24,000 bases of DNA from Aliarcobacter cibarius (GCF_013372265.1 NZ_CP054051.1:608263-632262), one strand, 5' to 3'. Positions 2,203 to 16,668 are shown, counted from the first letter of the stretch. The notes: generated from the sequence alone by a model not told the origin. Made by a program: numbers and translations.

Positions 2203-2385
2203 TTTTTCCTTTTCAAAGTACTCAATTTATCGTGTTGAGTTAGACTCCTTTTTGTATCAAATAATACATAAAATCTAACTCAAACTTAAAAAAATCTAAT
2301 TTTAATATCCACTTTGATAAATTAAAATAATCTGCTTTTTTGAATATTTTTTAAGAATCTCATTTATCACAAGTAGTGCAAAAAT

Positions 2386-2408
2386 AAAAGAGACTAAAAG
2401 TCTCTTTT
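2386..2408 (-). terminator. Hairpin terminator downstream of the xis-like gene
   Basis: Perfect 9-bp stem, AAAAGAGAC (2386-2394) with GTCTCTTTT (2400-2408), and a 5-nt loop. On the minus strand it is followed by a T-rich run (TATTTTTGC). It overlaps the stop codon at 2407-2409. Confidence 0.55.
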
Positions 2409-2598
2409 ATGCTGCTATATTATTCTTTTTTAAACTTTCAAAATAATCATTAATATTATTTTGACTCCAAAAGCTTGAACCTCCTACTTTAATAGGTCTC
2501 AAAAGCTTAATTTGTTTACTGAGCCTATATAACGTTGCTCTACTAACTGGTATTTGAACTAACACAGCATCTATACGTAAAAATTTGTCTTTTTCCAT
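2407..2598 (-). CDS. AlpA/excisionase-family (MerR-like HTH_17) DNA-binding protein
   Basis: MEKDKFLRIDAVLVQIPVSRATLYRLSKQIKLLRPIKVGGSSFWSQNNINDYFESL fits the Xis/AlpA pattern (short leader, HTH, P.K(I/V)G, W, then a C-terminal helix). I moved the start to the ATG at 2598, where a GAGGTGG-like RBS lies about 8 nt upstream and the previous ORF stops at 2600. The track start at 2628 would overlap that ORF. Confidence 0.7.
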   Translation of the reverse strand: MEKDKFLRIDAVLVQIPVSRATLYRLSKQIKLLRPIKVGGSSFWSQNNINDYFESLKKNNIAA

Positions 2599-2599
2599 A

Positions 2600-2962
2600 T
2601 TAAGCCACCTCAGATGTAATATATTCATAAAAAATTGGTATTTTAATTATCGTAAAATCCGTAGACATTCTCAGACGGTGTGGTTGCACCCTATATTTAT
2701 TACAGTAATTCCAAATGCATTTTATATGTTTAATTTTTACAGTATAAGAATCTGAAAAATAATCATAAACATTTTTAATTCCACCAAATCTTCTAAAAAA
2801 TTCTAATATTTCAGGGTTTAATCTGTTGTTGTTGCACCGTATATCCTCTAAAGATTCAAAGGTTTTCTCTCTAAAATCCTTAATTGCAACACATGTTAAC
2901 ATATTAATAAAATTTATTGTTTTAACACATTCTTTTGTGTAAAGTGGATGAATATTAACCAT
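2600..2962 (-). CDS. Hypothetical protein (120 aa), no recognisable family
   Basis: Sits between the Rep-like gene (8-nt overlap at 2955-2962) and the xis-like gene (1-nt gap). The operon context supports coding. Cys-rich, with no motif I can name. Confidence 0.5.
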   Translation of the reverse strand: MVNIHPLYTKECVKTINFINMLTCVAIKDFREKTFESLEDIRCNNNRLNPEILEFFRRFGGIKNVYDYFSDSYTVKIKHIKCIWNYCNKYRVQPHRLRMSTDFTIIKIPIFYEYITSEVA

Positions 2963-3710
2963 TTACTACCTCGGCATCACATATTTTAATACATTTTTTA
3001 GACCCATTTACATTTATTACATAAAAATTATTTTGAATATCGATTATTTTGTAATACGCATCTGCAACTTTAATAAATTTTCCAATATTTATAAAATTAA
3101 TATTTTCTGCCAATTTACCATTAATCAAATGTTGATTGATGAATAAATATTTCCATTCTTGAAAGGCTTTTTGTTTATCAAGTTTTTGATAATTTATACA
3201 CAATAAACCATCACATATTGAATAAATATGTTTTTCAGATATTGCAGCAAAAGTTTTATTTTGAAAATCTCTCACTATCCCATTTTTAAAATCTAAAAAA
3301 TCTCTCTCACTTTCTACTGAGGATTGAGTGATGATTAAAGAAGATGATGATTCGTAGGTCATAGCTGTGACACTATCTTGTGGTGTCACTGATGATACAA
3401 TAGTAGTGTCATTTTGTACTTTTAGTGGTGTCAAAGTGCTACCACCAAAAGTAAGTGTATAAATATTGCTTGTTTGTTGCTTTTTTCCTTTTTTAAATCT
3501 ATGTTGTTTTTTTAATACTTGCATTTTTTCTAGTTTTTTAACTATTCTCTTTGCAGTTGAAATGCTGATAGAAGCTTTTTTCGCAATATGACTATAACTT
3601 GGGAAGCAGCTCATACTATCGTCTGCACAGTCAGCTAAAGCTAATAACACTAGCTTTATATTGCCATTTAAATTACTTTTAAATGCCTCATTTATAGCTT
3701 TTATACTCAT
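2955..3710 (-). CDS. Rep-like protein with N-terminal winged-HTH (HTH_36/DnaD-like) domain
   Basis: The N-terminus IKLVLLALADCADDSMSCFPSYSHIAKKASISISTAKRIVKKLEKMQVLKK is the typical PF13730-type HTH seen in plasmid and phage replication initiators. Its start overlaps the upstream stop (TAATG at 3708-3712). Confidence 0.65.
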   Translation of the reverse strand: MSIKAINEAFKSNLNGNIKLVLLALADCADDSMSCFPSYSHIAKKASISISTAKRIVKKLEKMQVLKKQHRFKKGKKQQTSNIYTLTFGGSTLTPLKVQNDTTIVSSVTPQDSVTAMTYESSSSLIITQSSVESERDFLDFKNGIVRDFQNKTFAAISEKHIYSICDGLLCINYQKLDKQKAFQEWKYLFINQHLINGKLAENINFINIGKFIKVADAYYKIIDIQNNFYVINVNGSKKCIKICDAEVVNG

Positions 3711-4396
3711 TATGCAACCTCTCTTTCTTCATCATAAAAATCTATAAAAATTTGATTATTAGATTGTTTCTTTAAAATTTTAAATTGCTCACTAAAATAG
3801 TAATTATTAAAATTTGATTTATCAATATTGTATTTTTCAGTTAATTCTACAGCTTCCTCATGGCTCAAGTCATAATTTTTTAGTAATAAATTTATTGCAA
3901 AAATTAATTTATTAGGTTCATATTTTGAAATTTTTTGAATATCAATAACTGAAAAATCAACTTCATAATTTTCATATATTTCGTCCAAAATCATTGTTTG
4001 TAAAAATACAACATTTATCTTTCTGTTTTTATCAAATACATTTTTACAGTTGTTGCAAATACGTTGCTTGATTAAATAATACTTATCTAAAGTATTTATA
4101 TTGTCTCTTTCAAAAAAACACTTTTTATTTTTTGAAATATTTTTCAAAACTTGTGAAGCAGTTACTTCTATTGATAGCCTATATATAGATTCAAAATCTA
4201 GGTATTTTATATATCCACCAGTTTTATAAAATAACTCTTCTACGTCATCTTTTATAAATTCATATGTAACTGAATCTATATTGATTAGTTCTTCTTTCCA
4301 TGTTTCTAGTGAATAAGAACTAAAAAATGAGATTTTGAAATCTCGCCAAATCTCGTTATAATTCCTATCGATAGGAATTGACATTCTTTTTTGCAT
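3710..4396 (-). CDS. Hypothetical protein (228 aa), first gene of the rep-side operon
   Basis: I moved the start to the ATG at 4396 (MQKRMSIPIDRNY...), which has AGGAGA 5 nt upstream. The track start at 4444 would run through a 12-bp inverted repeat. No recognisable domain. Confidence 0.55.
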   Translation of the reverse strand: MQKRMSIPIDRNYNEIWRDFKISFFSSYSLETWKEELINIDSVTYEFIKDDVEELFYKTGGYIKYLDFESIYRLSIEVTASQVLKNISKNKKCFFERDNINTLDKYYLIKQRICNNCKNVFDKNRKINVVFLQTMILDEIYENYEVDFSVIDIQKISKYEPNKLIFAINLLLKNYDLSHEEAVELTEKYNIDKSNFNNYYFSEQFKILKKQSNNQIFIDFYDEEREVA

Positions 4397-4416
4397 GTTA
4401 TCTCCTGTTTTAAGAT

Positions 4417-4468
4417 AGATTCTTTTTCTTTTGAAAGCGACCAACTATCAGAGTTTGAAAAAGAATCT
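4417..4468. promoter_or_regulatory. Perfect 12-bp inverted repeat just upstream of the rep-side operon (candidate operator or 5' leader hairpin)
   Basis: AGATTCTTTTTC (4417-4428) and GAAAAAGAATCT (4457-4468) are exact reverse complements with a 28-nt spacer, 21-72 nt upstream of the ATG at 4396. A second inverted repeat lies next to it: TTAGTGA (4473-4479) with TCACTAA (4487-4493). Confidence 0.4.
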
Positions 4469-4700
4469 TTTTTTAGTGATTTTTTGTCACTAAAAGAATA
4501 TTAGAGTAATCATTTTTCTAAGTCAAATATTGTAAAAATCTTTAAAAACCCCATAAAATCGAACATCTTACAAATGTGGAACAACTTAATTAAAAATAAA
4601 TTCAGTATTAATTAATACTAAATTAAGTTAATTTTAAGGTTAATATTTATAAAAAAGTACTATTTAAAAAAAGCAAATAAAATTTTCAATGTGTTACAAT

Positions 4701-4728
4701 TTGTATCAAAATGATTCTTTTGATACAA
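4701..4728 (-). terminator. Hairpin terminator after the mob operon
   Basis: Perfect 11-bp stem, TTGTATCAAAA (4701-4711) with TTTTGATACAA (4718-4728), and a 6-nt loop. It begins 13 nt beyond the stop of the 60-aa ORF at 4741. Confidence 0.5.
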
Positions 4729-4740
4729 ATTTTTTATAGA

Positions 4741-4923
4741 TTAAATACCACTTTCATATATTTCTAATATTTGTTTTTTACTAAACCATTGTAATAATTG
4801 TTCTTTTGTATCTAATCCATATATATACCACCCAGTAAATAATTCACCATTTATTCCAATTTCAAATTTTTCTTCAAATTTTCCTTTTCCATAACACTCT
4901 AATATTGCATCTATTTTTTTCAT
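4741..4923 (-). CDS. Small hypothetical protein (60 aa), translationally coupled to the relaxase
   Basis: Its ATG overlaps the relaxase TGA (ATGA at 4920-4923 on the minus strand) and a hairpin follows. No family recognised. Confidence 0.5.
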   Translation of the reverse strand: MKKIDAILECYGKGKFEEKFEIGINGELFTGWYIYGLDTKEQLLQWFSKKQILEIYESGI

Positions 4924-6359
4924 TTTTTAATCCTTTTAGTATTTTTTGTTATTGTTTCAACTAAATCAAAATTTTCTTTGATAACTTCACCAATATTCAA
5001 ACTATCCATTTTAATTTTTAGTTTGTTTACAAGTTTTGCAATGATTCTTCCAATGTTTGCAATTTTTGAAATAATTGATTGTTTAACTCTTTGTTGTTCT
5101 CCACAGTATTCTCCAAGTTTAACTCGTAGATTTTCTGCGTCTGCTGTAACTTGTTTATAAACTCCATCTCTTGTTTTTCCAGCTTTTCTATAAGCTCTAT
5201 ATTTAGCTTCTCGCTCTTTTGTAATTCCTGATTTAGTTGTTGCTCTAGTACTGTCATTTTTTACTCCTTTATCTTTATAAATATTGTTGATTTGTCTTGG
5301 CTTTGTATTACTTCCTTCATTGGTACTTTGATGTACTTTTGATTCTGCTCCACATACTGTAAATCTAAAGGTACTTGCCAAGTTTGTAAATTTTGCATTT
5401 GATTTTGAATTAGGAAATAAAATATCATTGTTATAATCAAAATTATTAGATTCGTTACTCCCATTATTATCAACTGGTATTTGTTTTTTCGATTCAACTC
5501 TTCTTGGATATTTTGATTGAATATATTCAGCTTTTCTCTCAGTATATTCATTAAGCTTGTTTGTATAGAATCTAATTTCTCTTTGTGTGTCTCTTCTATT
5601 GTATTCATCAATTCTTGATTTTGTGTTTTCGCAGATTCTTTCAAATTCTGCAAGGCTTGTAAATTGTTCACTATAAATTCCTCCTTTATATCTTCTAGCT
5701 TTTTTTGAATCTGGTAGTTTCAAACTAATGTAATCACTTCCAACTCTATTCACAAAAATTCCATTTTCATTTAATAGCTCAATCATTTGGTCTCTATTTT
5801 GTATTTGCCCATTTTTTACAAGCTCATGAAGCATCTCATCCAGCTTTTCATAGTCTTTTTGAAGTGATATTTTTTTACTTGCACCTTGAAGTGTTCTTTC
5901 TTTTGCAGGGTCTTTTGGGTCAGTAAAACCATGAGTTAGGTTGGTTAGATTTTGCCAAACATCCACACGACTTAAATCCTGTTTATGATAAAAAGGATTT
6001 AAAGCTATTTTTCTTGTTAGTTCGATTTTTGGAATTACAAAGTTTAACTCTAGTCTTCCCTTATCAGTATGCTCCACCCAAAGGATATTGTATTGGTCTG
6101 ATTCAAGAGATGGTAATAGATATTTTTCAAAATCTCCCATAAGCTTGTATTTTAAATCTTCATCTATATTTTGCTCTTCAAAGCTAAGACACCCAACACA
6201 CACTTTATGCTTGAAAGAAATAGAATTTATGATATTTCTTGTTAGTTGTTCATCACCAATTAAAACTCTTGCTGTTCCATCTTTTTCTCTGTGATTTAAA
6301 AGATAATCAAGAGCTTTTACACTTCCACCTTTTTTATTTGAAAAAAACTTAACTACCAT
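4920..6359 (-). CDS. Mobilization relaxase, ColE1 MbeA-like MOB(HEN) type (PF03432 relaxase/mobilisation nuclease domain)
   Basis: I moved the start to the ATG at 6359 (MVVKFFSNKKGGSVKALDYLL...), a typical relaxase N-terminus with a candidate catalytic Tyr in DYLL. The motif WVEHTDKGRLELNFVIP gives H-x6-E-x-N, the HEN signature that replaces the 3-His motif in MbeA-type relaxases. The start lies 1 nt after the mobC stop. The C-terminal half is basic and low-complexity, as in many Mob proteins. Confidence 0.85.
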   Translation of the reverse strand: MVVKFFSNKKGGSVKALDYLLNHREKDGTARVLIGDEQLTRNIINSISFKHKVCVGCLSFEEQNIDEDLKYKLMGDFEKYLLPSLESDQYNILWVEHTDKGRLELNFVIPKIELTRKIALNPFYHKQDLSRVDVWQNLTNLTHGFTDPKDPAKERTLQGASKKISLQKDYEKLDEMLHELVKNGQIQNRDQMIELLNENGIFVNRVGSDYISLKLPDSKKARRYKGGIYSEQFTSLAEFERICENTKSRIDEYNRRDTQREIRFYTNKLNEYTERKAEYIQSKYPRRVESKKQIPVDNNGSNESNNFDYNNDILFPNSKSNAKFTNLASTFRFTVCGAESKVHQSTNEGSNTKPRQINNIYKDKGVKNDSTRATTKSGITKEREAKYRAYRKAGKTRDGVYKQVTADAENLRVKLGEYCGEQQRVKQSIISKIANIGRIIAKLVNKLKIKMDSLNIGEVIKENFDLVETITKNTKRIKK

Positions 6360-6360
6360 T

Positions 6361-6687
6361 TTACATCTCTTGTTTATATTGCAATTTTTGCAACTGTTTT
6401 TCAATTTCAACAAGCTGTGTAAGCACTGGTATCTTATGCTTATTATCCATAGTATGCATAGATTTTGCAATTTGGTTTAGGTTATTACCAATACGATTAA
6501 GCTCAAAAATCAAATCCATTTGTATTGGAATAGTAATCTTATGATTGATAATTGCATTCTTTGCAAAATTGGTGAAATTAACACCTAAGGTGGTTAATTG
6601 AGATTCAATTTGTGCATATTCATCAGTAGAAAATCGAAGAGTTTTTCTGATAAATCTTGAGTCATATTTTTGGTCTTTGTTTTGCAT
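6361..6687 (-). CDS. mobC: MobC/MbeC-like relaxosome accessory protein (ribbon-helix-helix)
   Basis: KTLRFSTDEYAQIESQLTTLGVNFTNFAKNAII is RHH-like, and ELNRIGNNLNQIAKSMH is the hallmark L.RIG.NLNQIA motif of PF05713. I moved the start to the ATG at 6687, which has AAGGAAG 5 nt upstream. The 30-codon extension in the track covers a hairpin and is probably non-coding. Confidence 0.85.
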   Translation of the reverse strand: MQNKDQKYDSRFIRKTLRFSTDEYAQIESQLTTLGVNFTNFAKNAIINHKITIPIQMDLIFELNRIGNNLNQIAKSMHTMDNKHKIPVLTQLVEIEKQLQKLQYKQEM

Positions 6688-6725
6688 TTTTGCTTCCTTT
6701 TTATTAAAAAGTAAGTCATTGGGTT

Positions 6726-6860
6726 TTAGGGAGAGAATCATCCCTAACGAGGTCTCATTTTCAGTTTCGGCTGACAATGAGTATCCTCGCCCTTTTAAAT
6801 TTTTAACTTACTTATAAAGGTATTCACAAAAATTTAAATTTGAAAACACCCTTAGGGTGT
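6726..6860. promoter_or_regulatory. Candidate oriT and mob promoter region
   Basis: Lies in the intergenic region between mobC (minus strand) and hsdM (plus strand). It holds two inverted repeats: TTAGGGA (6726-6732) with TCCCTAA (6741-6747), and ACACCC (6846-6851) with GGGTGT (6855-6860). Between them, TATCCTCGCCC (6782-6792) is one mismatch from the YATCCTG/Y nick core of IncP/Ti-type oriTs. The position immediately upstream of mobC is typical for an oriT. Confidence 0.3.
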
Positions 6861-6951
6861 GAGAAAATTACTAAACAGTTATTTGCAATAAAGAGTTATT
6901 TATTTAGTTTTAGCTAACATAAATTCTAACTCATAGGGGAGAAAATAAAAT

Positions 6952-8553
6952 ATGACAGACCAAAAATTTTTACAAGATTTAGAAAAAAAGCTATGGACTT
7001 CAGCAAATAAACTTTTACCTTCACTAGATGCAGCTGTTTACAAGCATGTAGTTTTGGGTATGGTGTTTTTAAAATATGTTTCAGATAGTTTTGAAACAAG
7101 AAGACAAGAACTAATTGGTGAGTTTACAAACCCAAAAAGTGACTACTACCTAAGCAACAATAAAGAAGATGAACTTGTGCTTGAAGAGCTAGAAAATAGA
7201 GATTTTTATACAGAAAAAAATATATTTTGGGTTCCTGCAACTGCAAGATGGAACTATATTCAAAACTCTATTCGTCTATCTTTGGGTTCAACACTTCCTC
7301 TTGGTGGTGAGTTTAAAGGAGCTGGAAAACTTCTTGATGATACTATGGAAGCCATAGAAAAAGAGAATCCTAAATTAAAAAGAATTTTAAATAAAAACTA
7401 CGCTCAACTTCAAATAGAACAAAACAAACTAGCAGACCTTTTTGATTTAATATCAACTATACCATTTACTCATCACAACCTAAAAGCAAAAGATATTTTA
7501 GGTCATGTTTATGAGTATTTTTTAGGTCAATTTGCTTCAGCTGAAGGAAAAAAAGGTGGTCAATTTTATACTCCAAAATCAATAGTAAACCTAATAGTAG
7601 AGATGATAGAACCATACAAAGGAAGAATTTACGACCCTGCAATGGGAAGTGGTGGATTTTTTATAAGTTCTGAGAAGTTTATAGAAGCACATAATGGAAG
7701 AATTGGAGATATATCTATTTATGGTCAAGAGTCAAATCCTACAACTTGGAGATTGGCTGCTATGAATATGGCAATTCGTGGTTTGGATTTTAATTTTGGA
7801 AAAGAGCCTGCTGATACTTTGGTAAATGACTTACACCCTGATTTAAGAGCAGATTTTGTATTAGCAAATCCACCTTTTAATCAAAGCGAATGGTGGAGTG
7901 CAAGCTTGGAAAATGATGCTAGATGGAAAGACTATCCAACCCCTCCACAAGGAAATGCAAACTTTGCTTGGATGCTTCATATGCTATATCACACAGACCC
8001 AACAACTGGAGTTGTAGGACTAGTGCTTGCAAATGGAAGTTTAAGCTCAACTACAAGTGGTGAGGGAGAGATAAGAAAAGCAATAGTACAAAATGATTTG
8101 GTAGAAGCAATAGTTGCTCTTCCATCTCAACTTTTTGCAAATACACAAATTCCTGCTTGTATATGGATACTCAACCGTAACAAAAAACAAAAAGGGAAAA
8201 CTCTCTTTATAGATGCTAGAGATTTTGGATATATGATAGATAGAAAACAAAGAGATTTTGACACAAACGACATCAAAACCATAGCTAAAATGTTTCACCA
8301 CTTTAGAGACGCTGCAGAGTTTGAAAACATCGCAGGGAAATACTATAGTGCCACAACTGAGGAGATAGCAAAACAAGAGTATATCCTAACCCCTGGGCGA
8401 TATGTAGGCACTGAAGAGGTAGAAGATGATGGAATCCCTTTTAAAGAAAAGATGGATAAACTCACAAAAACTCTTGAAGAGCAGTTCAAAGAGAGTGCAA
8501 GACTAGAAGGAATGATAAAAGAGAACTTGGCGGGGTTAGGGTATGAAATCTGA
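6952..8553 (+). CDS. hsdM: Type I restriction-modification system, DNA methyltransferase subunit M (N6-adenine)
   Basis: The HsdM N-terminal region reads LWTSANKLLPSLDAAVYKHVVLGMVFLKYVSD. The AdoMet motif is IYDPAMGSGGFF and the catalytic motif is LANPPFN. AGGGGAGA lies about 8-10 nt upstream of the ATG. Confidence 0.95.
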   Translation: MTDQKFLQDLEKKLWTSANKLLPSLDAAVYKHVVLGMVFLKYVSDSFETRRQELIGEFTNPKSDYYLSNNKEDELVLEELENRDFYTEKNIFWVPATARWNYIQNSIRLSLGSTLPLGGEFKGAGKLLDDTMEAIEKENPKLKRILNKNYAQLQIEQNKLADLFDLISTIPFTHHNLKAKDILGHVYEYFLGQFASAEGKKGGQFYTPKSIVNLIVEMIEPYKGRIYDPAMGSGGFFISSEKFIEAHNGRIGDISIYGQESNPTTWRLAAMNMAIRGLDFNFGKEPADTLVNDLHPDLRADFVLANPPFNQSEWWSASLENDARWKDYPTPPQGNANFAWMLHMLYHTDPTTGVVGLVLANGSLSSTTSGEGEIRKAIVQNDLVEAIVALPSQLFANTQIPACIWILNRNKKQKGKTLFIDARDFGYMIDRKQRDFDTNDIKTIAKMFHHFRDAAEFENIAGKYYSATTEEIAKQEYILTPGRYVGTEEVEDDGIPFKEKMDKLTKTLEEQFKESARLEGMIKENLAGLGYEI

Positions 8554-9856
8554 TAAGTTATCAAATCTTGTTGATAAAATTTTTAGTGGCGGAACACCAA
8601 GTACAAGTAATGAAAAATATTGGAATGGACAATACTCTTGGCTTTCATCAGGGGAGACAGGAAATAAATTTATAAATTCAACTGAAAAAAGTATTACAAA
8701 GCTTGGGATTGATAATTCATCTACAAAACTTGCTCTCAAAAATGATATAGTTATTGCCTCTGCTGGTCAGGGAAAAACTAGAGGTCAAACTTCTTTTTGT
8801 AATATTGATACATATATAAATCAATCAGTAGTAGCAATTAGAACAAATGAAAAAATTCTTGATTCTAAATGGCTATTTTATAATTTATCGAGTAGATATG
8901 AAGAAATGAGAAGTTTGTCTGATTCTCATAGCATTAGAGGTAGTTTAACAACCAAACTATTAGGAATAATGGAAATAGAATATCCAGAATTAGAAACTCA
9001 AAAAAAGATAGCTCATATTCTCTCAACTCTTGATGAGAAAATAGAACTTAACCGTAAAATGAACCAAACATTAGAAGAGATGGCTCAAACTATTTTCAAG
9101 TCATGGTTTGTAGACTTCGACCCCGTACATGCAAAAGCAAATTGCGAGAGTGAAGCAGAACTTGAAAATATCGCCAAAGAGTTAGGTATTAGTAAAGAAA
9201 TCCTAGACCTTTTCCCTAGCGAATTTATTGAGAGCGAAATGGGTATGATACCTAAAGGGTGGGAAGCTACAGAGTTATCTCAAATCTGTAAAATTCAATC
9301 TGGGTATGCTTTTAAAAGTGCTTGGTGGCAAGATACTGGAGTAAAAGTAATTAAAATAAAAAATATTGATGGAAATAGAGTTAATACTTTAGATTGCGAG
9401 TGTGTTTCTGAAGAAATAGCTACTAAAAATTCTAATTTTAAACTTTCAAGTGGAGATTTCCTTATCGCAATGACTGGTGCTACGGTTGGAAAAGTTGGTG
9501 TAATTTATACATCGGATGAAGAGTATTTGCTCAATCAACGAGTTGGAAGATTTCAACCTATTAAATATTATGATGAATATGTAAAAATATTTGCAAGTTC
9601 AAGCAAATTTTTTGAGAGTATTCAAGGACAAGCACAAGGAAGCGCTCAACCCAATATTAGTGCTAGAGAGATTGAAACAGTAAAAATTATTAAACCTAAC
9701 AATGAAATTATGAAAGTATTTTCATCGTTGCTTAATCCATTTTTTTCAAAAATTCTAGAACATCAAGGAGAGATTCAAACTCTTGAAAAAACTAGGGATA
9801 CATTACTTCCTAAACTTTTAAGTGGTGAAATCGATGTATCGGAGTTGAAAATTTGA
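8543..9856 (+). CDS. hsdS: Type I restriction-modification system, specificity subunit S
   Basis: Two target-recognition domains are separated by the conserved central helix KKIAHILSTLDEKIELNRKMNQTLEEMAQTIFKSWFVDFDPV. The conserved C-terminal helix is LEKTRDTLLPKLLSGEIDV. The start overlaps the hsdM stop by 11 nt. Confidence 0.95.
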   Translation: MKSDKLSNLVDKIFSGGTPSTSNEKYWNGQYSWLSSGETGNKFINSTEKSITKLGIDNSSTKLALKNDIVIASAGQGKTRGQTSFCNIDTYINQSVVAIRTNEKILDSKWLFYNLSSRYEEMRSLSDSHSIRGSLTTKLLGIMEIEYPELETQKKIAHILSTLDEKIELNRKMNQTLEEMAQTIFKSWFVDFDPVHAKANCESEAELENIAKELGISKEILDLFPSEFIESEMGMIPKGWEATELSQICKIQSGYAFKSAWWQDTGVKVIKIKNIDGNRVNTLDCECVSEEIATKNSNFKLSSGDFLIAMTGATVGKVGVIYTSDEEYLLNQRVGRFQPIKYYDEYVKIFASSSKFFESIQGQAQGSAQPNISAREIETVKIIKPNNEIMKVFSSLLNPFFSKILEHQGEIQTLEKTRDTLLPKLLSGEIDVSELKI

Positions 9857-10401
9857 TAGAAAATATTGAAAAGTTTTTTCAAGCAATTCATTTAGCTCCA
9901 AGACACTTATTTGGTATATGTGTTTTGGGTTTATTTTTACTCTTTAGTTCCTCAAATGTTTTGAGTATATTTGGAATTGAAACAATAGTTAATGACCATC
10001 GAGCTTTTATAGGACTTTTGACACTTTTTTCTTTTGTTTTTTTTATTATTCAATTAATACCAGCCATAAGTAAAAAGTACAGACTACATCAATACAAAAA
10101 GCAATTATTAAATGAGCTTTACTCACTTTCTAAAGAGGAAAAAGTTTTGTTGTTGTATTGTTTATATAATAATCAAAAAACTATTTCCCTGCCTATAACA
10201 CATTCTGTAGCTAATCGATTAAAAAGCAAAGGCATTTTAAAAATGTCTCATGGAACTGGGAATAGTCTTGCTTGGTCTTATAATATACAAAATGATATTT
10301 GGAATAAACTTCAAATGTATGAATTAATACTTTTAGATGATTTGACTGAGCAAGAAATGCAAAGAATAAGACATGAAATTTTTAGTAAATATTATAATTA
10401 G
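9853..10401 (+). CDS. SieB-like (superinfection exclusion B family) 2-TM membrane protein, embedded in the hsd operon
   Basis: A TTG start overlaps the hsdS TGA (TTGA at 9853-9856), with GGAG 8 nt upstream. There is no in-frame ATG until residue 131. Two N-terminal TM helices lie at about residues 19-35 and 51-72. The soluble domain LYSLSKEEKVLLLYCLYNNQKTISLPITHSVANRLKSKGIL matches my recollection of the PF14163 pattern (L..L...EK..L...Y.....T..LP......V..L...GIL). Confidence 0.55.
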   Translation: MIENIEKFFQAIHLAPRHLFGICVLGLFLLFSSSNVLSIFGIETIVNDHRAFIGLLTLFSFVFFIIQLIPAISKKYRLHQYKKQLLNELYSLSKEEKVLLLYCLYNNQKTISLPITHSVANRLKSKGILKMSHGTGNSLAWSYNIQNDIWNKLQMYELILLDDLTEQEMQRIRHEIFSKYYN

Positions 10402-10414
10402 TTAGGAGCCGTAA

Positions 10415-11896
10415 ATGTCAAGATGGATATATAGTTTTAGTAATCATGCATTTAATGTAACATGGGAAGATTTAAAAACTCAATTACAAAAAAGTGAAGT
10501 AGATGAAACTATTACTGCAAGTGTAGAAGAACTCGCGAGACTAAAAAAAGTAATAGCATTTATAGATAATGCTTTGTATAGTTTAGAGCCAGAGTTAGTT
10601 CCTCTTTCATTTTTGGATAATTTCAATAATCAAGCTGCTGAATGTAGAAATCAGATAAATAGCTATAACTCAAATAACAATATCGGACATATTACAAATG
10701 CAAATAACAATGCAGATAATCTATTAAGTTATGTAAGACCTTATTTTTTAAGCTCTGAAGCTTTAAAAAAATCTTTACTTGGTGCTATTCGTGCATATAC
10801 AAATGAGATTGATAAACATCTTGGCAAGATAACAGATACTGAGTCTGAATACAAAAAAGTTCAAAAATTTAGAGAAGATATTGAAGAGTATTATAATATT
10901 TTATTTAGCAACGATGAAGAAAAATCTGTTAGAGAGCAAATAGATACTTTACTAAAAGGTACAGAAGAAAAATATAGTGCAATCAATAAATTTCATGATG
11001 AAACTTTAGTTGATGAAGGACATATATCCACTAAATCACAAATCATTGAAGCTAAAAAAGATATTTTAAGAGATGTGAAAGAAGCAAATGAAAAGCTTGT
11101 TGGTGTTTCTGGAAAAATTGAAGAGCTAGATAAATTTTATACTAAAGTATTTGGCACAGAGAATGATGAAGGAAAAGTAGTTGGTGGATTAAAACTTGAG
11201 ATAGAACAAAGAATAAAAGCTTTAGATGATTTCAAAAAAGAGCAAGAAAGAATTTATAATGAAGAAATGACTTCAAGACTAGAATCTTTAAAACAATATG
11301 AACAAGAGCAACAAGCTAATAATAAAAATTTGTATGAACAAATAGAAAAATTACTACCAGGGGCAACAAGTGCTGGTCTTGCTAAAGCATACCAAGACAT
11401 GAAAGAATCATTTGATAAACCAATTGAAAACTGGAATAGAGTTTTTATAGCCTCTATTGTAATTATGTTTATTTCTACTTTTGTATCATTTGTTGATATA
11501 GGGATTGTTAAAGATAATGTTATAACTTTGTTTAGTTTTAAACAAATCGGAGATTTTACAAGTACACTTAATAATTTATTATTTAAGTTGCCTCTTTATG
11601 CTCCACTTATTTGGTTGGCAATATTTGCTAGTAAAAGAAGAAGCGAAAATCAAAGATTACAACAAGAGTATGCTCACAAAGAAGCATTGGCGAAATCTTA
11701 TGTAAGCTATAAAATGCAAATTGATGAACTAAATCAAGAAGATAAAAAGCTTCTCGAAAAATTATTAGATAGTTCCATAAATACGGTTTCTCATAATGCA
11801 AGTGAAAGTTTAGATAAAAAACATGGAGATACTACTCCTATGCAAGAAACTATAAAAATGACTGTTGAACAAGTTTTGAAATTGAAAGGTAATTAA
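10415..11896 (+). CDS. Long helical/coiled-coil protein with a C-terminal 2-TM hairpin; no family recognised
   Basis: AGGAG lies 6 nt upstream of the ATG. Residues about 100-310 are charged and heptad-like, for example EQRIKALDDFKKEQERIYNEEMTSRLESLKQYEQEQQ. A LLPGATSAGLAKAY motif follows. TM1 is VFIASIVIMFISTFVSFV (nt about 11438-11494) and TM2 is LLFKLPLYAPLIWLAIFA (nt about 11570-11632). The tail is basic and amphipathic: SKRRSENQRLQQEYAHKEALAKSYVSY. Confidence 0.7.
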   Translation: MSRWIYSFSNHAFNVTWEDLKTQLQKSEVDETITASVEELARLKKVIAFIDNALYSLEPELVPLSFLDNFNNQAAECRNQINSYNSNNNIGHITNANNNADNLLSYVRPYFLSSEALKKSLLGAIRAYTNEIDKHLGKITDTESEYKKVQKFREDIEEYYNILFSNDEEKSVREQIDTLLKGTEEKYSAINKFHDETLVDEGHISTKSQIIEAKKDILRDVKEANEKLVGVSGKIEELDKFYTKVFGTENDEGKVVGGLKLEIEQRIKALDDFKKEQERIYNEEMTSRLESLKQYEQEQQANNKNLYEQIEKLLPGATSAGLAKAYQDMKESFDKPIENWNRVFIASIVIMFISTFVSFVDIGIVKDNVITLFSFKQIGDFTSTLNNLLFKLPLYAPLIWLAIFASKRRSENQRLQQEYAHKEALAKSYVSYKMQIDELNQEDKKLLEKLLDSSINTVSHNASESLDKKHGDTTPMQETIKMTVEQVLKLKGN

Positions 11897-13413
11897 TGCC
11901 ACTTCCAATAAATATAAACGAATTAATTCATGGCTCAACTGTAGAGTGGGAGAGAATAGAGTTTAAAGAGGGATGGAATCCTGAAATTATTTTACATACT
12001 ATTTGTGCATTTGCAAATGATATAAACAACTGGGGTGGTGGCTATCTTATAATAGGCATCGCTGAGTCAAACGGTAGAGCCGTTTTGCCTCCAAAAGGTT
12101 TGGATATAAACGAGCTTGACAAAATCCAACAAGAACTTCATCAACTTTGCCATAAAATCACACCTACTTATTTTCCAGTAGTTGAACCATACAAAATAGA
12201 AGGAAAGCACTTTTTGGTGGTATGGTGTGCAGGTGGTGAAGCTAGACCATATAAAGTAAATAAAACATTATCAAATAATTCAGATAAAGCCTACTATGTG
12301 CGAAGAATGTCTTCAACTGCAAAAGCAAATGAGCAAGAAGAACAACAACTTTTACAATTAACTGCAAAAATACCTTTTGATGATAGGGTAAATCATCATG
12401 CAACTATTTCCGATTTATCACTAGCTCATATACGAATATTTTTACAAGATGTAAAAAGTGATTTATTTGAAAGTGCTACAAAAATACCATTTGAAGATTT
12501 AGTAAGAATGATGCAAATAGCAAGAGGAAGTAGTGAATATTTACGACCTGTAAATGTTGGATTACTCTTTTTTAGTGAAACTCCTGAGAAGTTTTTCCCT
12601 TATACACAAATAGAAGTAACTATATATCATGATGATATTGGAGATAGTTTTAGTGAAAAAGTTTTTAAAGGTCCAATTCACAAGCAACTAAGAGATGCAC
12701 TTGCTCATATAAAAACACTTGTAATAGAAGAACATGTGCAAAAAGTAGATGGTCAAGCAGAAGCGATAAGGTACTACAACTACCCATTTGAAGCAGTTGA
12801 AGAAGCACTTGCAAATGCTGTATATCATAAAAACTATGAAGAGCGAGAGCCTATCAAAGTTAATGTTTTAGCTGATAAAATGGAGATAATCTCTCATGGT
12901 GGAGCGATGCCACCTATTACAAAAGATGATTTCAAAAAAGATAGAATTATCACTATGAAATATCTTAACAGAAGAATTGGTGATTTTCTAAAAGAGCTTC
13001 ATTTAACAGAAGGAAAAGGCACAGGAATACCAAAAATAAAAAGAGCTATGAAAAACAATGGTTCAGATGAACCTATTTTTGAAACAGATGAAGCTAGAAC
13101 TTATTTTGTGACTATTTTAAAAGCAAAGCTAGAGGAAAGTAATTTATCTCGTGACCGATTACGACCGATTACGACCGATTACGGACGATTAGCGGACAAT
13201 TACGGACGATTAGATTTAGAAGAAGAAAAAATTATAAAATATTTACTTGATTATGGAAAGATAACTAGAAAAGAGCTTTTGGAAATAATAAATGTAAAAA
13301 AAACAAAAGCTCATGAGATACTTAGCCAAATGGTAGAGAAAAAAATTATTATTAAAAGTGGTCAAGGAAGAAGTACGCATTATATTTTAGGGGAAATAAA
13401 AAATGATAAATGA
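11896..13413 (+). CDS. COG2865-type protein: Schlafen-like AlbA_2 domain + HATPase_c_4 (RecG C-terminal-like) domain + C-terminal winged HTH
   Basis: AlbA_2 pattern: EWERIEFKEGW...ICAFANDINNWGGGYLIIGI. HATPase_c_4 pattern: EEALANAVYHKNYEEREPIKVNVLADKMEIISHGG, followed by GKGTGIPKIKRAMKNNGSDEPIFE. wHTH pattern: EEKIIKYLLDYGKITRKELLEIINVKKTKAHEILSQMVEKKII. The start overlaps the upstream stop (TAATG). Confidence 0.8.
   Translation: MPLPININELIHGSTVEWERIEFKEGWNPEIILHTICAFANDINNWGGGYLIIGIAESNGRAVLPPKGLDINELDKIQQELHQLCHKITPTYFPVVEPYKIEGKHFLVVWCAGGEARPYKVNKTLSNNSDKAYYVRRMSSTAKANEQEEQQLLQLTAKIPFDDRVNHHATISDLSLAHIRIFLQDVKSDLFESATKIPFEDLVRMMQIARGSSEYLRPVNVGLLFFSETPEKFFPYTQIEVTIYHDDIGDSFSEKVFKGPIHKQLRDALAHIKTLVIEEHVQKVDGQAEAIRYYNYPFEAVEEALANAVYHKNYEEREPIKVNVLADKMEIISHGGAMPPITKDDFKKDRIITMKYLNRRIGDFLKELHLTEGKGTGIPKIKRAMKNNGSDEPIFETDEARTYFVTILKAKLEESNLSRDRLRPITTDYGRLADNYGRLDLEEEKIIKYLLDYGKITRKELLEIINVKKTKAHEILSQMVEKKIIIKSGQGRSTHYILGEIKNDK
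13151..13211 (+). repeat. GC-rich imperfect tandem repeat of a 10-bp unit (about 6 copies) inside orf505
   Basis: The units are GTGACCGATT, ACGACCGATT, ACGACCGATT, ACGGACGATT, AGCGGACAATT (11 bp) and ACGGACGATT. They encode the linker RDRLRPITTDYGRLADNYGRL between the HATPase_c_4 domain and the wHTH. Confidence 0.85.
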
Positions 13414-16400
13414 AGAACAAGTAGAACTTTTAGCAATAGATTGGTTTAAAGAGTTGGGATATGATTATCTTTTAGGGTATGAAATATCACCAGATAGCCA
13501 AAATCCACAAAGAAAAAGTTATGAAGATGTACTTTTATTTGATAGATTAAAAAATTCACTTATAAAACTAAATTCAAATATTCCTTTGGTTGCTATTGAA
13601 GATTCAATAGATATTTTAAGAAAACCACAACAAGCATCCCTAGTTCAAAACAACAGAGCTTTTCATCAAATGATTCTACAAGGTATAAGTGTAGATATAA
13701 AAAAAGATGATGAAATAAAAGGTGATGTTGTAAAACTTATAGATTTTGAGAACTTTTCAAATAATGATTTTTTAGTAGTAAATCAATTTACAATCAAAGG
13801 AAGTAAGGGAAATAGAAGACCTGATTTAATAGTTTTTATAAATGGTTTACCACTTGCAATAATAGAGCTAAAAAATCCAGCAGATGAAAATGCTGATATA
13901 TACAAAGCATATAATCAACTTCAAACTTACAAAGATGAGCTAGAGGAACTTTTTGTTTTTAATGAAGCATTAGTAATAAGTGATGGAATAAATGCAAGAG
14001 TTGGTTCTTTGACAGCTACAGATGAGAGGTTTATGTTTTGGAGAACAGTAAAAGATGAAAATGATAAACCACTTTTAGAGTATGAATTAGAGACTTTAAT
14101 CAAAGGCTTTTTTAATAAAGAGTATTTTTTGGATTATATTCAAAACTTTATAATCTTTGAAGATGATAGTAAAAAAATCATAAAAAAAATAGCTGCTTAT
14201 CACCAGTTTCACGCTGTAAGAGAAGCTGTTGATTCTGTTGTTTTAGCTTCAACTGAAGGAAGCAGAAGAGGTGGAGTTGTTTGGCACACTCAAGGAAGTG
14301 GAAAATCAATATCCATGGCTTGCTTTGCTGGAAAACTTACAAAACAAGCTGCTATGAAAAATCCAACATTAGTTATTGTAACAGATAGAAATGATTTAGA
14401 TGGACAACTTTATGCAACATTTAGTAGTGCAAAAATGCTTTTGGGTCAAGAACCTATACAAATGGATGATGTTGGTGAACTAAGAGAAACATTAACAAAT
14501 AAACCAGCAGGTGGAATTATATTTACAACTATTCAAAAATTTAGTCTTAAAAAAGAGGAGAGTAGATTTCCTGTTTTAAGTGATAGAAGTAATATTGTTG
14601 TAATTGCAGATGAAGCACATAGAAGCCAATATGGTTTTGATGCAATGCTTGATAAGGATGGAAAGTTTAAATATGGTTATGCTCAACACTTGCGAGATGC
14701 TTTGCCAAATGCTACATTTATAGGATTTACAGGAACACCAATAGAGAGTGAAGATAAAGATACACGAGCTGTATTTGGGGATTATATATCTGTTTATGAT
14801 ATTGAAGATGCTGTAAGAGATGGTGCAACTGTTCCTATATATTATGAAAGCAGACTTGCAAAACTTGATTTAAATGCAGATATTTTAAAAGAGATTGATA
14901 AAGAAGTAGGGGATTTGGATATTGGAGATGAACTGTCTGATAGAGAAAGATTCAAAAGCAAATGGAGTGCTTTAGAAAAACTTGTAGGAAGTGAACCTAG
15001 AATTAAACAAATTGCACAAGATATAGTAACTCATTTTGAAGATAGAACAGCTACTATTGATGGAAAAGGTATGATAGTTGCTATGAGTAGACAAATTGCA
15101 GTTGATTTATATGATGCAATTGTAGCAATTAGACCATCTTGGCATAGTGCTGACCCAACAAAAGGTGCTATAAAAATAATTATGACAGGAAGTGCAAGCG
15201 ATGAAGCAAAACTTCAAAAACATATCTACTCAAAACAGATTAAAAAAGATTTAGAAAAAAGAATTAAAGATGTAGATGATGAGCTTAAACTTGTAATTGT
15301 AAGAGATATGTGGCTTACAGGATTTGATGCACCAAGTATGCACACAATGTATATTGATAAACCAATGAAATCTCATAACTTAATGCAAGCAATAGCTAGA
15401 GTAAATAGAGTTTTTAAAGATAAAAAAGGTGGATTGGTTGTTGATTATATAGGTATTGCAAATGAATTAAAACATGCCTTAAAAACATATACAACAGCTG
15501 GTGGAAAAGGAAAAGGAACTATTGATACAGCAGAAGCACTTGCAGAGATGTTAAAGCGACTTGATATTGTAAGAAATTTGTATCATGGATTTGATTATAG
15601 CTCTTTTATGACAAAAGCTCATATGTTACTAGTTCCTTGTGCAAACTTTATTTTGGGTTTAGATGATGGTAAAAAAAGATATTTGGATGAGGTATTAGCT
15701 TTGACAAAAGCTTTTAGCTTATGTGGAACTTTAGACGGTGCAAAAGAGCATAAAGAAGAGATAGCATTTTTTCAAGCAGTTAAATCTGTAATTCAAAAAG
15801 CAAGTTCAAAACCATCAAATGTAAAAGACCCAAACAAAGCTATAAAACAACTAATAGACAATGCTGTAATTTCAGATGGGGTTGAGGATATTTTTAGTCT
15901 TGTTGGACTTGATAAACCAAATATTGGGATATTATCAGAAGAGTTTTTGGAAGATGTTGCAAATATGCCTTATAAGAATTTAGCTGTTGAACTACTTGAG
16001 AGATTGTTAAAAGATGATATAAGAGCTAAAACAAAAAATAATGTTGTTCAAGAGAAGAAATTTAGTGATAGATTACAAGCTACTTTAGGAAAATATCATA
16101 ATCGGGCAATAGAGACTTCAAAAGTAATTGAAGAGTTAATCCAAATGGCAAAAGATTTTGCAGAAGCTACAAAACATGGTCAAGATTTGGGATTAAATTT
16201 TGATGAGTTGGCGTTTTATGATGCTTTAGCTGAAAACGAATCTGCTTTGATTGAAATGGGAGACGAAACACTTAAAAAAATTGCAATAGAACTTACTTTA
16301 AAACTAAGAAGTAGCATAAGTGTGGATTGGCAAAAAAGAGAATCTGTAAGAGCAAAAATGAGAAATATCATAAGAATAATTTTAAAAAGATATAAATATC

Positions 16401-16477
16401 CACCAAATAAAGCCGAAAAAGCACTTGATATGGTAATGAAACAAGCTGAAGTTTTAAGTGATGAGTGGAGTAGGTAA
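13403..16477 (+). CDS. hsdR: Type I restriction-modification system, restriction/helicase subunit R
   Basis: The N-terminal PD-(D/E)xK nuclease region reads RRPDLIVFINGLPLAIIELK. SF2 helicase motifs are HTQGSGKS (I), IADEAHRSQ (II, DEAH) and GFTGTP (III). The C-terminal region is the HsdR type (DELAFYDAL). The start overlaps the orf505 stop by 11 nt, with AGGGGA upstream. Confidence 0.95.
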   Translation: MINEEQVELLAIDWFKELGYDYLLGYEISPDSQNPQRKSYEDVLLFDRLKNSLIKLNSNIPLVAIEDSIDILRKPQQASLVQNNRAFHQMILQGISVDIKKDDEIKGDVVKLIDFENFSNNDFLVVNQFTIKGSKGNRRPDLIVFINGLPLAIIELKNPADENADIYKAYNQLQTYKDELEELFVFNEALVISDGINARVGSLTATDERFMFWRTVKDENDKPLLEYELETLIKGFFNKEYFLDYIQNFIIFEDDSKKIIKKIAAYHQFHAVREAVDSVVLASTEGSRRGGVVWHTQGSGKSISMACFAGKLTKQAAMKNPTLVIVTDRNDLDGQLYATFSSAKMLLGQEPIQMDDVGELRETLTNKPAGGIIFTTIQKFSLKKEESRFPVLSDRSNIVVIADEAHRSQYGFDAMLDKDGKFKYGYAQHLRDALPNATFIGFTGTPIESEDKDTRAVFGDYISVYDIEDAVRDGATVPIYYESRLAKLDLNADILKEIDKEVGDLDIGDELSDRERFKSKWSALEKLVGSEPRIKQIAQDIVTHFEDRTATIDGKGMIVAMSRQIAVDLYDAIVAIRPSWHSADPTKGAIKIIMTGSASDEAKLQKHIYSKQIKKDLEKRIKDVDDELKLVIVRDMWLTGFDAPSMHTMYIDKPMKSHNLMQAIARVNRVFKDKKGGLVVDYIGIANELKHALKTYTTAGGKGKGTIDTAEALAEMLKRLDIVRNLYHGFDYSSFMTKAHMLLVPCANFILGLDDGKKRYLDEVLALTKAFSLCGTLDGAKEHKEEIAFFQAVKSVIQKASSKPSNVKDPNKAIKQLIDNAVISDGVEDIFSLVGLDKPNIGILSEEFLEDVANMPYKNLAVELLERLLKDDIRAKTKNNVVQEKKFSDRLQATLGKYHNRAIETSKVIEELIQMAKDFAEATKHGQDLGLNFDELAFYDALAENESALIEMGDETLKKIAIELTLKLRSSISVDWQKRESVRAKMRNIIRIILKRYKYPPNKAEKALDMVMKQAEVLSDEWSR

Positions 16478-16622
16478 GGTAAAAATAAAATACAGTACAA
16501 ATGACAGTACAAAATTTTAAATTTAAATAAAAAATCCTTTTTTATAGGGATTTATGATATAAATCAAATTGCAGATAGTTCCTGTAAAATTACTTCCAAA
16601 AAACTAAAAAAATAACTTAAAT

Positions 16623-16642
16623 AAGCCCATTAAATTGGGCTT
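16623..16642. terminator. Hairpin in the hsdR-mcp intergenic region (possible hsd operon terminator)
   Basis: 7-bp stem, AAGCCCA (16623-16629) with TGGGCTT (16636-16642), and a 6-nt loop. The T-run is better on the minus strand than on the plus strand, so the strand is ambiguous. Confidence 0.35.
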
Positions 16643-16668
16643 TATAAAATAAATAATTATCTTTCTTT

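Follow-up and report, generated by a model that had tools for sequence, protein, structure and literature searches.

A type I restriction-modification operon of Aliarcobacter cibarius carries three separable genes, one from an uncatalogued membrane protein family, between hsdS and hsdR

Results

A type I restriction-modification (R-M) operon in Aliarcobacter cibarius carries three additional genes between hsdS and hsdR. The operon lies in a 24,000-nt stretch of the genome (GCF_013372265.1, NZ_CP054051.1:608263-632262), which we call the window and to which all coordinates refer unless another locus is named. Its six open reading frames (ORFs) lie on the + strand in the order hsdM-hsdS-orf182-orf493-orf505-hsdR. 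The methyltransferase gene hsdM (6952-8553) matches Pfam N6_Mtase (7.5e-109) and HsdM_N, as well as the PADLOC model MTase_I (4e-167). The specificity gene hsdS (8543-9856) matches Methylase_S in two stretches, and the restriction gene hsdR (13403-16477) matches HSDR_N, SWI2_SNF2, T1R_D3-like and, at its HindI-like C-terminus, T1RH-like_C (2.5e-123), with a PADLOC REase_I score of 1222 bits. The core genes thus encode, in one operon and with full-length Pfam and PADLOC matches, a complete type I system: HsdM, an HsdS with two target-recognition domains, and an HsdR that combines an HSDR_N nuclease with a superfamily 2 motor.

The first inserted gene, orf182 (9853-10401), belongs to the SieB family (Pfam PF14163, 2.2e-19) and begins with TTG. 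The second, orf493 (10415-11896), encodes an uncharacterised all-helical protein that belongs to no Pfam family and is described here from AlphaFold2 (AF2) models, conservation and genomic context. The third, orf505 (11896-13413), encodes a prokaryotic Schlafen (pSlfn) of the HisKinase-HTH class, as judged from Pfam, sequence motifs, PHROG and PADLOC. Hydropathy predicts two transmembrane (TM) segments in orf182, two in orf493 and none in orf505. The position of the three genes is the one occupied by PrrC and the rlo genes in other type I operons, as an earlier reading of the window from its sequence alone (the sequence-only reading) had proposed.

The six genes are tightly packed. Two junctions are 11-nt overlaps, hsdM/hsdS (ATGAAATCTGA) and orf505/hsdR (ATGATAAATGA). 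The TTG start of orf182 at 9853 overlaps the hsdS TGA as TTGA and lies 8 nt downstream of a GGAG at 9841-9844; a 13-nt spacer containing AGGAG precedes orf493, and orf493 and orf505 overlap as TAATG. Reading the sequence confirmed this arrangement as first described, including the six co-oriented ORFs, the overlaps and the Shine-Dalgarno sites. The unusual start of orf182 is supported because its homologues begin with ATG or GTG at the same position, overlapping the hsdS stop. We found no convincing + strand terminator between hsdM and the end of hsdR, and co-transcription of all six genes is therefore plausible. The stronger statement that they must be cotranscribed goes too far, as internal promoters may be present; promoter-like sites in this AT-rich DNA are no commoner in the window than in shuffled sequences.

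The three inserted genes are independent of one another. We compared the slot between hsdS and hsdR across related loci (designated by L numbers), counting as the same hsd lineage those whose HsdR is 72-98% identical to that of the window. Only the window and L082 hold the full order SieB-orf493-orf505. L081 holds SieB, orf493 and a remnant of orf505; a clean deletion of ~894 bp, corresponding to window positions 11981-12874 (L081 12128-12130), has removed the Schlafen nuclease half and left a 177-aa ORF with the HATPase_c_4 domain only, while the remaining operon is 94-96% identical. In L086/L096 and L100 the SieB-like gene is alone in the slot, with the L086 junctions read directly from the sequence. 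In L088 (Ca. Sulfurimonas baltica) the slot holds orf493 followed by Abi_2, and in L095 it holds SieB, a ThsB-like TIR gene, a gene for a 208-aa protein with one TM helix, and orf505.

Every pairwise link among the three genes is thus broken in close relatives (L086, L088, L095 and L100). The orf182-orf493 pair also occurs in L081, L083, L084, L093 and L094; neither the pair nor the trio was seen outside loci with proteins at least 73% identical to those of the window, as would be expected if one operon had been inherited in common. A multi-gene unit would be expected to co-occur, with its genes adjacent, across divergent genomes; what we find is each gene without the others. The sequence-only reading had taken the trio for a single R-M-coupled sensor and effector system, and we rejected that candidate on this evidence.

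The L095 slot is of interest in its own right. Its TIR gene and the neighbouring gene (L095 3878-5055) stand in place of orf493; the TIR protein has 183 aa and matches PF08937 (1.8e-16) and PADLOC PDC-M50B/ThsB, and the 208-aa protein has a single N-terminal TM helix and no family match. The two may form an uncatalogued pair of a TIR and a membrane protein.

orf493 belongs to a large family that the catalogues searched do not cover. It matches no Pfam or NCBIfam family, its best PADLOC match is insignificant (LmuB, 1.3e-3, 15 bits, over the coiled coil), and its C-terminus gives a weak match to PHROG 34659, a family of unknown function (2.6e-5). orf493 matches more than 1,000 clusters at 90% identity, and a profile search returned 4,400 representatives at 50% identity with E <= 1e-3, 610 of them with E <= 1e-30; nearly all span the full length of 450-500 aa. 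A phage origin for orf493 or orf182 was considered and rejected, since neither has a tblastn match in 50,697 phage records and the only hint for orf493 is the weak PHROG match.

Type I R-M genes are the only recurrent neighbours of orf493. We examined 80 genome loci from Campylobacterota, Gamma-, Beta- and Alphaproteobacteria, Verrucomicrobia and Leptospira, in which the recurrent neighbours are HsdM (18), HsdS (15) and HsdR (14). None of the 80 has a SieB-like or AlbA_2 neighbour, which speaks against the trio as a unit. All-versus-all clustering of the neighbours within four genes on either side likewise yielded no conserved small upstream partner beyond the Hsd proteins, and Pfam and PADLOC scans of the 87 immediate neighbours in loci outside hsd operons found no SieB and no dominant family.

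For 58 full-length orf493 homologues the flanks were adequate for assessment. Fourteen lie strictly between hsdM/S and hsdR and four more probably do, so that 18/58 (31%) are embedded in a type I R-M operon. Embedding has been gained or lost at least 10 times on a neighbour-joining tree and involves at least four HsdR similarity classes. In slots with several cargo genes, orf493 is the first to follow hsdS except where a SieB-like gene occurs; in many cases its called start and the hsdS stop overlap. orf493 occupies the slot in three Campylobacter concisus genomes. Its slot-mates elsewhere are known or candidate defence genes: a KAP NTPase/PDC-S20, an RmrA-like gene with DUF4411, RhuM-Fic/PDC-S23, and AbiD. 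Outside R-M operons orf493 stands alone between large intergenic gaps, or beside MazEF and Abi_2, toxin-antitoxin, deaminase, recombinase or housekeeping genes.

Several further contexts of orf493 relatives were noted. An Abi_2/AbiD gene directly follows an orf493 homologue at L075 11644-12573, L088 9596-10597 and L092 8411-9412; in L092 the two genes lie outside any R-M operon, after MazE-PemK. We set this pairing aside as a candidate unit: three loci are too few, L088 and L092 probably share descent, and the pairing may reflect either chance co-cargo or a real link. Distant relatives of the TM and C-terminal module (27-31% identity) are hypothetical genes on plasmids (L105 4404-5660, L106 4299-5594, L107 4830-6035 and L087 5803-6996). 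On Acinetobacter and Enterobacterales plasmids the relative is cargo of Tn7-like TniB/TniQ elements; on Vibrio plasmids it adjoins an integrase and an Abi family gene; and on Campylobacter conjugative plasmids it adjoins AAA ATPase, DUF4435, VapD or type IV secretion system genes.

orf493 combines a variable N-terminal region with a conserved membrane-proximal part. The helical bundle and coiled coil at the N-terminus (residues 1-339) are followed by two TM helices that form a hairpin (340-367 and 388-406), and then by a highly conserved juxtamembrane region at the C-terminus (407-475). Two AF2 models are entirely helical (mean predicted local distance difference test score, pLDDT, 68.8 and 72.7; predicted template modelling score, pTM, 0.34), with the N-terminal bundle at residues 1-110 reaching pLDDT 80-95; they agree on long coiled-coil helices, the TM hairpin and the C-terminal helices. 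Conservation peaks before TM1 (IExLLPGATSAGLAxAY), in TM2, directly after TM2 (KRRSExQRLQQEYAHKEALAKSY) and at NAS..LD.KHGD..P. The variable parts are the N-terminal coiled coil, TM1 and the short outer loop. Basic residues after TM2, the lack of a signal peptide and the positive-inside rule suggest that both large domains are cytoplasmic. Foldseek against PDB and BFVD returned nothing below E = 0.19, and a sequence-profile search of PDB found only designed helical bundles and syntaxin. A match to the alpha-pore-forming toxin XaxA (E = 0.71) was discarded as evidence. We read orf493 as an autonomous single-gene module in which a conserved core next to the membrane is likely combined with a cytoplasmic sensor of variable sequence.

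orf182 represents a small SieB-like subfamily found almost exclusively inside type I R-M operons. Its Pfam match scores 69.9 bits against a cut-off of 26 and covers model positions 3-144 of 147; the homologues P0279 and P0281 also exceed the cut-off, and the PHROG SieB match reaches only 0.024. Prediction places a two-TM hairpin at approximately residues 18-42 and 48-74, followed by a cytoplasmic C-terminal domain of ~105 aa. Among 5.8 billion proteins the subfamily comprises 12 clusters by single-sequence search and 15 by profile, and a metagenome scan found only four loci. orf182 has no tblastn match in the phage records or in the plasmid collections, and no match in PADLOC-DB v2.0.0, PDC models included.

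Type I R-M operons account for 12/13 contexts of the subfamily: the window, L081, L082, L083, L085, L086/L096, L093, L094, L095, L100, L102 and L103. The remaining context, L104, consists of a 116-aa fragment at the start of a contig, adjoining Phd-ParE. In L086, L100 and L102 the SieB-like gene is the only one inserted between hsd genes. Together with the 31% of orf493 homologues that are embedded, these contexts bear out the proposal that homologues of both genes are strongly linked to type I R-M loci. The proposal that all three inserted genes are of types associated with defence is likewise supported.

L102 and L103 represent a different type I family and gene order, and are the only clearly independent case. 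Here the SieB-like protein is 31% identical to orf182 over its full length and above the Pfam cut-off, and its gene lies between hsdR and hsdM of an EcoEI-type system, in the order R-SieB-M-S followed by a PIN gene. The L102 operon (2773-10511; hsdR-SieB-hsdM-hsdS-PIN_12) encodes an HsdR with an N-terminal DUF4145 and lies beside a large serine recombinase gene. Near-exclusive embedding is the strongest hint that orf182 is functionally tied to R-M enzymes, albeit from a small sample.

orf505 carries an intact predicted nuclease site. It matches SLFN_AlbA_2 (PF04326, 7.2e-17) and HATPase_c_4 (4.5e-14) in Pfam. Its winged helix-turn-helix (wHTH) region reaches sub-threshold matches only, of which the best is DIP2311-like_C (8.6e-5, 23.2 bits against a 27-bit cut-off), with TrmB and HTH_24 also below; we call the HTH because several weak matches agree. 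The family assignments first made for orf182 and orf505 therefore hold, that of the wHTH at this lower level. The protein comprises a Slfn/AlbA_2 domain (residues 17-144), a GHKL-type ATPase (~295-400), a DYGRL-repeat linker and the wHTH (~443-498).

The catalytic Ex4ExK motif of orf505 reads E17-WERI-E22-F-K24. Both glutamates are invariant in six homologues and K24 is present in 5/6, and the GHKL N-box ExxxNAxxH (E302 E303 ... N307 A308 ... H311) is invariant down to 36% identity. With this motif and the fusion of a HisKinase/GHKL ATPase to an HTH, the latter called from weak matches, orf505 falls in the pSlfn HisKinase-HTH class. It matches PHROG 12156 (5.5e-48), and a PADLOC prokaryotic Argonaute (pAgo) model aligns to its Slfn-ATPase (Slfn-GHKL) part (3e-21), consistent with described SLFN-GHKL-pAgo fusions. 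Homologues of orf505 stand alone on plasmids or adjoin a SNF2 and methylase pair.

The DYGRL linker between ATPase and wHTH is encoded by three copies of a 10-nt tandem repeat (GACCGATTAC) at 13153-13191. The same linker region is also repetitive in homologues, with DEVS x4 in Prosthecochloris and NEAI x3 in Parabacteroides, and may be slippage-prone or tuned in length.

HisKinase-HTH is the second commonest pSlfn architecture, at 19.2% of 5,930 pSlfns, and for 69.6% of pSlfn genes a known defence gene is found no more than 10 kb away (PMC13056530). In this group of proteins the Slfn domain is proposed to be a tRNase effector and the fused domains sensors (PMC13056530). The sequence-only reading had cast orf505 as a mere sensor or regulator of the membrane proteins, which is unlikely given its Ex4ExK motif and its class. 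Because its nuclease and ATPase motifs are intact and its homologues occur alone, orf505 is more likely a self-contained module, predicted to be a tRNase or other nuclease.

The R-M operon is cargo of a mobilisable island. Mobilisation genes lie directly upstream on the opposite strand (4920-6777): a NikA/MobC-like gene at 6361-6777 (Pfam NikA-like 1.3e-12, MobC 5.8e-11), a relaxase-like ORF at 4920-6470 with a weak, below-cut-off match (Pfam Relaxase, 2e-4), and an HTH_36 gene as the third opposite-strand gene. The same backbone is present in the closest named relative, Aliarcobacter cryaerophilus GCA_049278035.1 (L081), which aligns to window positions 2381-16643 at 87-96% DNA identity. L082 (~80% identity) has the six-gene operon in common with the window, but there it lies beside an integrase and an excisionase-like gene. 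Since the same operon occurs on a Mob backbone and on an integrase backbone, we conclude that the R-M operon as a whole is carried as cargo by mobile islands.

Two 26-nt direct repeats, identical at 24/26 positions, may mark the ends of the island. The left copy (1444-1469) overlaps the stop codon of the ORF at 216-1466, and the right copy (16508-16533) begins 31 nt after the hsdR stop; the ~15 kb that they bracket includes the HTH_36, relaxase-like and NikA/MobC genes and the entire R-M operon. The window shows neither an integrase nor a tRNA gene, and it matches no Rfam RNA family. G+C content ranges from 22 to 37%. Three ORFs located on the island or in its left flank, at 216-1466, 2600-2962 and 3710-4444 (416, 120 and 244 aa), match nothing in Pfam at E <= 1e-3.

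HsdS varies far more than its partners. Among loci with HsdM and HsdR 72-98% identical to those of the window, most have an HsdS of only 36-46% identity; the exceptions are L093 (98%) and L094 (81%). DNA-level alignment of hsdS is limited to a central conserved region (8994-9265). This is the usual swapping of target-recognition domains among relatives.

Discussion

We read the hsdS-hsdR junction as a cargo slot in which three mutually independent single-gene modules are stacked and expressed from the R-M transcript, providing layered second-line immunity; we put the probability of this reading at about 70%. The R-M enzyme would form the first line against unmodified DNA, and the three cargo genes would act behind it as responders of the abortive-infection type with separate triggers. 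On sensing an infection cue through its ATPase/HTH part, orf505 would cleave tRNA, and orf493 and orf182 would act at the inner membrane. In orf493 the variable N-terminal coiled coil may serve as the sensor and the conserved TM and juxtamembrane core as the effector; the gene moves as a solo element and has been captured repeatedly by type I R-M operons. We infer anti-phage activity, triggers and membrane or tRNA targets for all three genes in this way, and “guilt by embedding”, as argued by Payne et al., makes orf493 a good uncatalogued candidate.

Several points weigh against this reading. The putative defence roles of orf182 and orf493 come from embedding and a Pfam family name. When pSlfns of the HisKinase type were assayed in E. 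coli, they did not protect against the phages in the panel (PMC13056530). Of the assessable orf493 homologues 69% lie outside R-M operons, with many housekeeping neighbours and few known defence genes directly adjacent, and a non-immune membrane function is therefore possible for this family. The division of orf493 into sensor and effector is drawn from conservation, its models are of moderate confidence (pTM 0.34) and have no informative structural match, the SieB-like sample is small (15 clusters) and comes mostly from one hsd lineage, and the neighbour analysis used crude longest-ORF gene calls.

orf182, and possibly orf493, could alternatively act as a guard of the PrrC kind, held inactive by the intact R-M complex and freed by an anti-restriction factor (Ocr, ArdA or Stp-like) to kill or arrest the cell. 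The 12/13 embedded contexts of the SieB-like subfamily, in two R-M families and gene orders and often as the sole insert, mirror PrrC, and the place of orf493, nearly always first after hsdS with a called start that often overlaps or abuts the hsdS stop, would suit such coupling. Neither protein, however, resembles PrrC in sequence or domains; the 69% of orf493 homologues elsewhere function without an adjacent R-M locus, and the exclusive embedding of orf182 may reflect dependence on an R-M promoter or the small sample. We regard a guard function as unlikely.

The cargo genes might instead be accessory or selfish elements of the R-M system, tethering or regulating the enzyme, regulating the operon through the orf505 wHTH, or stabilising the island as addiction modules. 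In keeping with this, orf505 has a predicted DNA-binding wHTH and small R-M-linked regulators such as RptR are known; orf182 is essentially never found outside R-M operons, and non-embedded orf493 homologues are often beside housekeeping genes. Yet most type I R-M operons lack these genes, whose presence varies within a lineage, and the same slot hosts classical Abi, TIR, Fic and KAP-NTPase genes. A plain repressor would also have no need of the nuclease and ATPase motifs of orf505, and RptR is small compared with this 505-aa protein. An accessory role is thus very improbable.

That the three genes form a single R-M-coupled backup system, in which the soluble orf505 senses or regulates and either or both of the membrane proteins are effectors, is hardly credible: tight packing with probable translational coupling, the recurrence of the trio in L082 on a different mobile backbone (73-88% protein identity) and that of the orf182-orf493 pair in five other loci speak for it, but close relatives of one hsd lineage break the links pair by pair, orf493 has no SieB-like or AlbA_2 neighbour in the 80 diverse loci, L081 has lost half of orf505 with the rest intact, orf505 has its own nuclease active site, and the restriction of the trio to loci of high identity fits shared descent.

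Stacked independent modules remain our preferred reading, and what they add to current knowledge differs from gene to gene. Embedding as such is already known, the class of orf505 has been published, and orf182 adds an unusual context to an existing Pfam family. The orf493 family is of a general kind that is familiar but is itself uncatalogued, as Pfam, NCBIfam and PADLOC have no model for it. A bolder version would make the orf182 subfamily a membrane-acting, PrrC-style guard that two R-M families recruited independently and that fires once restriction is disabled by a phage, and orf493 the founder of a new, widespread (~4,400 clusters), single-gene family of inner-membrane abortive-infection proteins with an undescribed fold and effector core. 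We consider this version speculative and rather doubtful.

Type I R-M operons with nested defence genes have proved fertile ground for finding new immune systems, among them PrrC, TgvAB, DarTG2 and the PDC candidates. The embedding signal of orf493 (about one third of assessable homologues, in at least four R-M lineages) at least matches that of many catalogued candidates. Over its 13 contexts the SieB-like subfamily is confined nearly as strictly as PrrC, and may be a second effector that depends on or guards an R-M enzyme, while a predicted tRNase of the Schlafen type lies in the exact slot of the classic anticodon nuclease PrrC. The natural variants of the slot (SieB alone, orf493 with AbiD, the orf505 deletion and the TIR replacement) provide ready-made experimental controls.

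Comparison with known systems

A close precedent for the arrangement is PrrC, described as located “almost exclusively” within such operons. The prr locus of E. coli (EcoprrI) has, as does the window, a non-R-M gene between hsdS and hsdR; in E. coli this gene is co-expressed with them, and PrrC provides a second line of defence by abortive tRNA cleavage. orf505 resembles PrrC as a predicted tRNase in the same slot, and the orf182 subfamily may resemble it in near-exclusive embedding, judged from a small sample of 13 contexts. None of orf182, orf493 and orf505 is homologous to PrrC, however: they have no PADLOC PrrC match and their Pfam domains are unrelated. The orf493 and orf505 families also differ in lying mostly outside R-M loci, with 31% of orf493 homologues embedded and orf505 homologues occurring solo on plasmids.

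Other defence genes embedded in type I R-M operons include TgvAB on the Vibrio pathogenicity island VPI-2 of V. cholerae, DarTG2 in enteropathogenic E. coli, rloA/rloB of Campylobacter and the PDC candidates of PADLOC; in a systematic survey of embedding (Payne et al.), more than half of the embedded genes are unexplained. Like these, the genes described here appear as autonomous systems nested in an hsd operon, and genes co-embedded with orf493 elsewhere match PDC-S20, PDC-S23, AbiD and RmrA. The A. cibarius operon differs in stacking three unrelated single-gene modules, and orf182 and orf493 differ from the PDC candidates in having no significant match to a PADLOC v2 model.

SieB of phages P22 and lambda is the namesake of the orf182 family. 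P22 SieB halts macromolecular synthesis midway in the lytic cycle of superinfecting phages (PMC10461980). orf182, which aligns with almost the entire Pfam model, is likewise a small protein with a predicted membrane hairpin. SieB phages owe their self-immunity to Esc, a product made from an internal start. Whereas SieB is encoded by and expressed from a prophage, orf182 is part of an hsd operon carried by a Mob-type island.

For orf505 the nearest counterparts are the pSlfn HisKinase-HTH proteins and the SLFN-GHKL-pAgo fusions, with which it has in common a Slfn domain with Ex4ExK, a GHKL/HisKinase-like ATPase and, for the former, an HTH. It differs from the fusions in having no Argonaute module. 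Phage-triggered tRNA cleavage with defence has been demonstrated only for Ig-like and DUF262 pSlfn fusions (PMC13056530), and these two defending pSlfns differ from orf505 in those partner domains.

orf493 has no significant similarity in sequence, profile or fold to catalogued single-gene membrane effectors of abortive infection, and might conceivably form pores or depolarise the membrane, which is pure conjecture. Its general design is nevertheless theirs: a variable cytoplasmic region, a TM hairpin and the genomic company of a defence slot.

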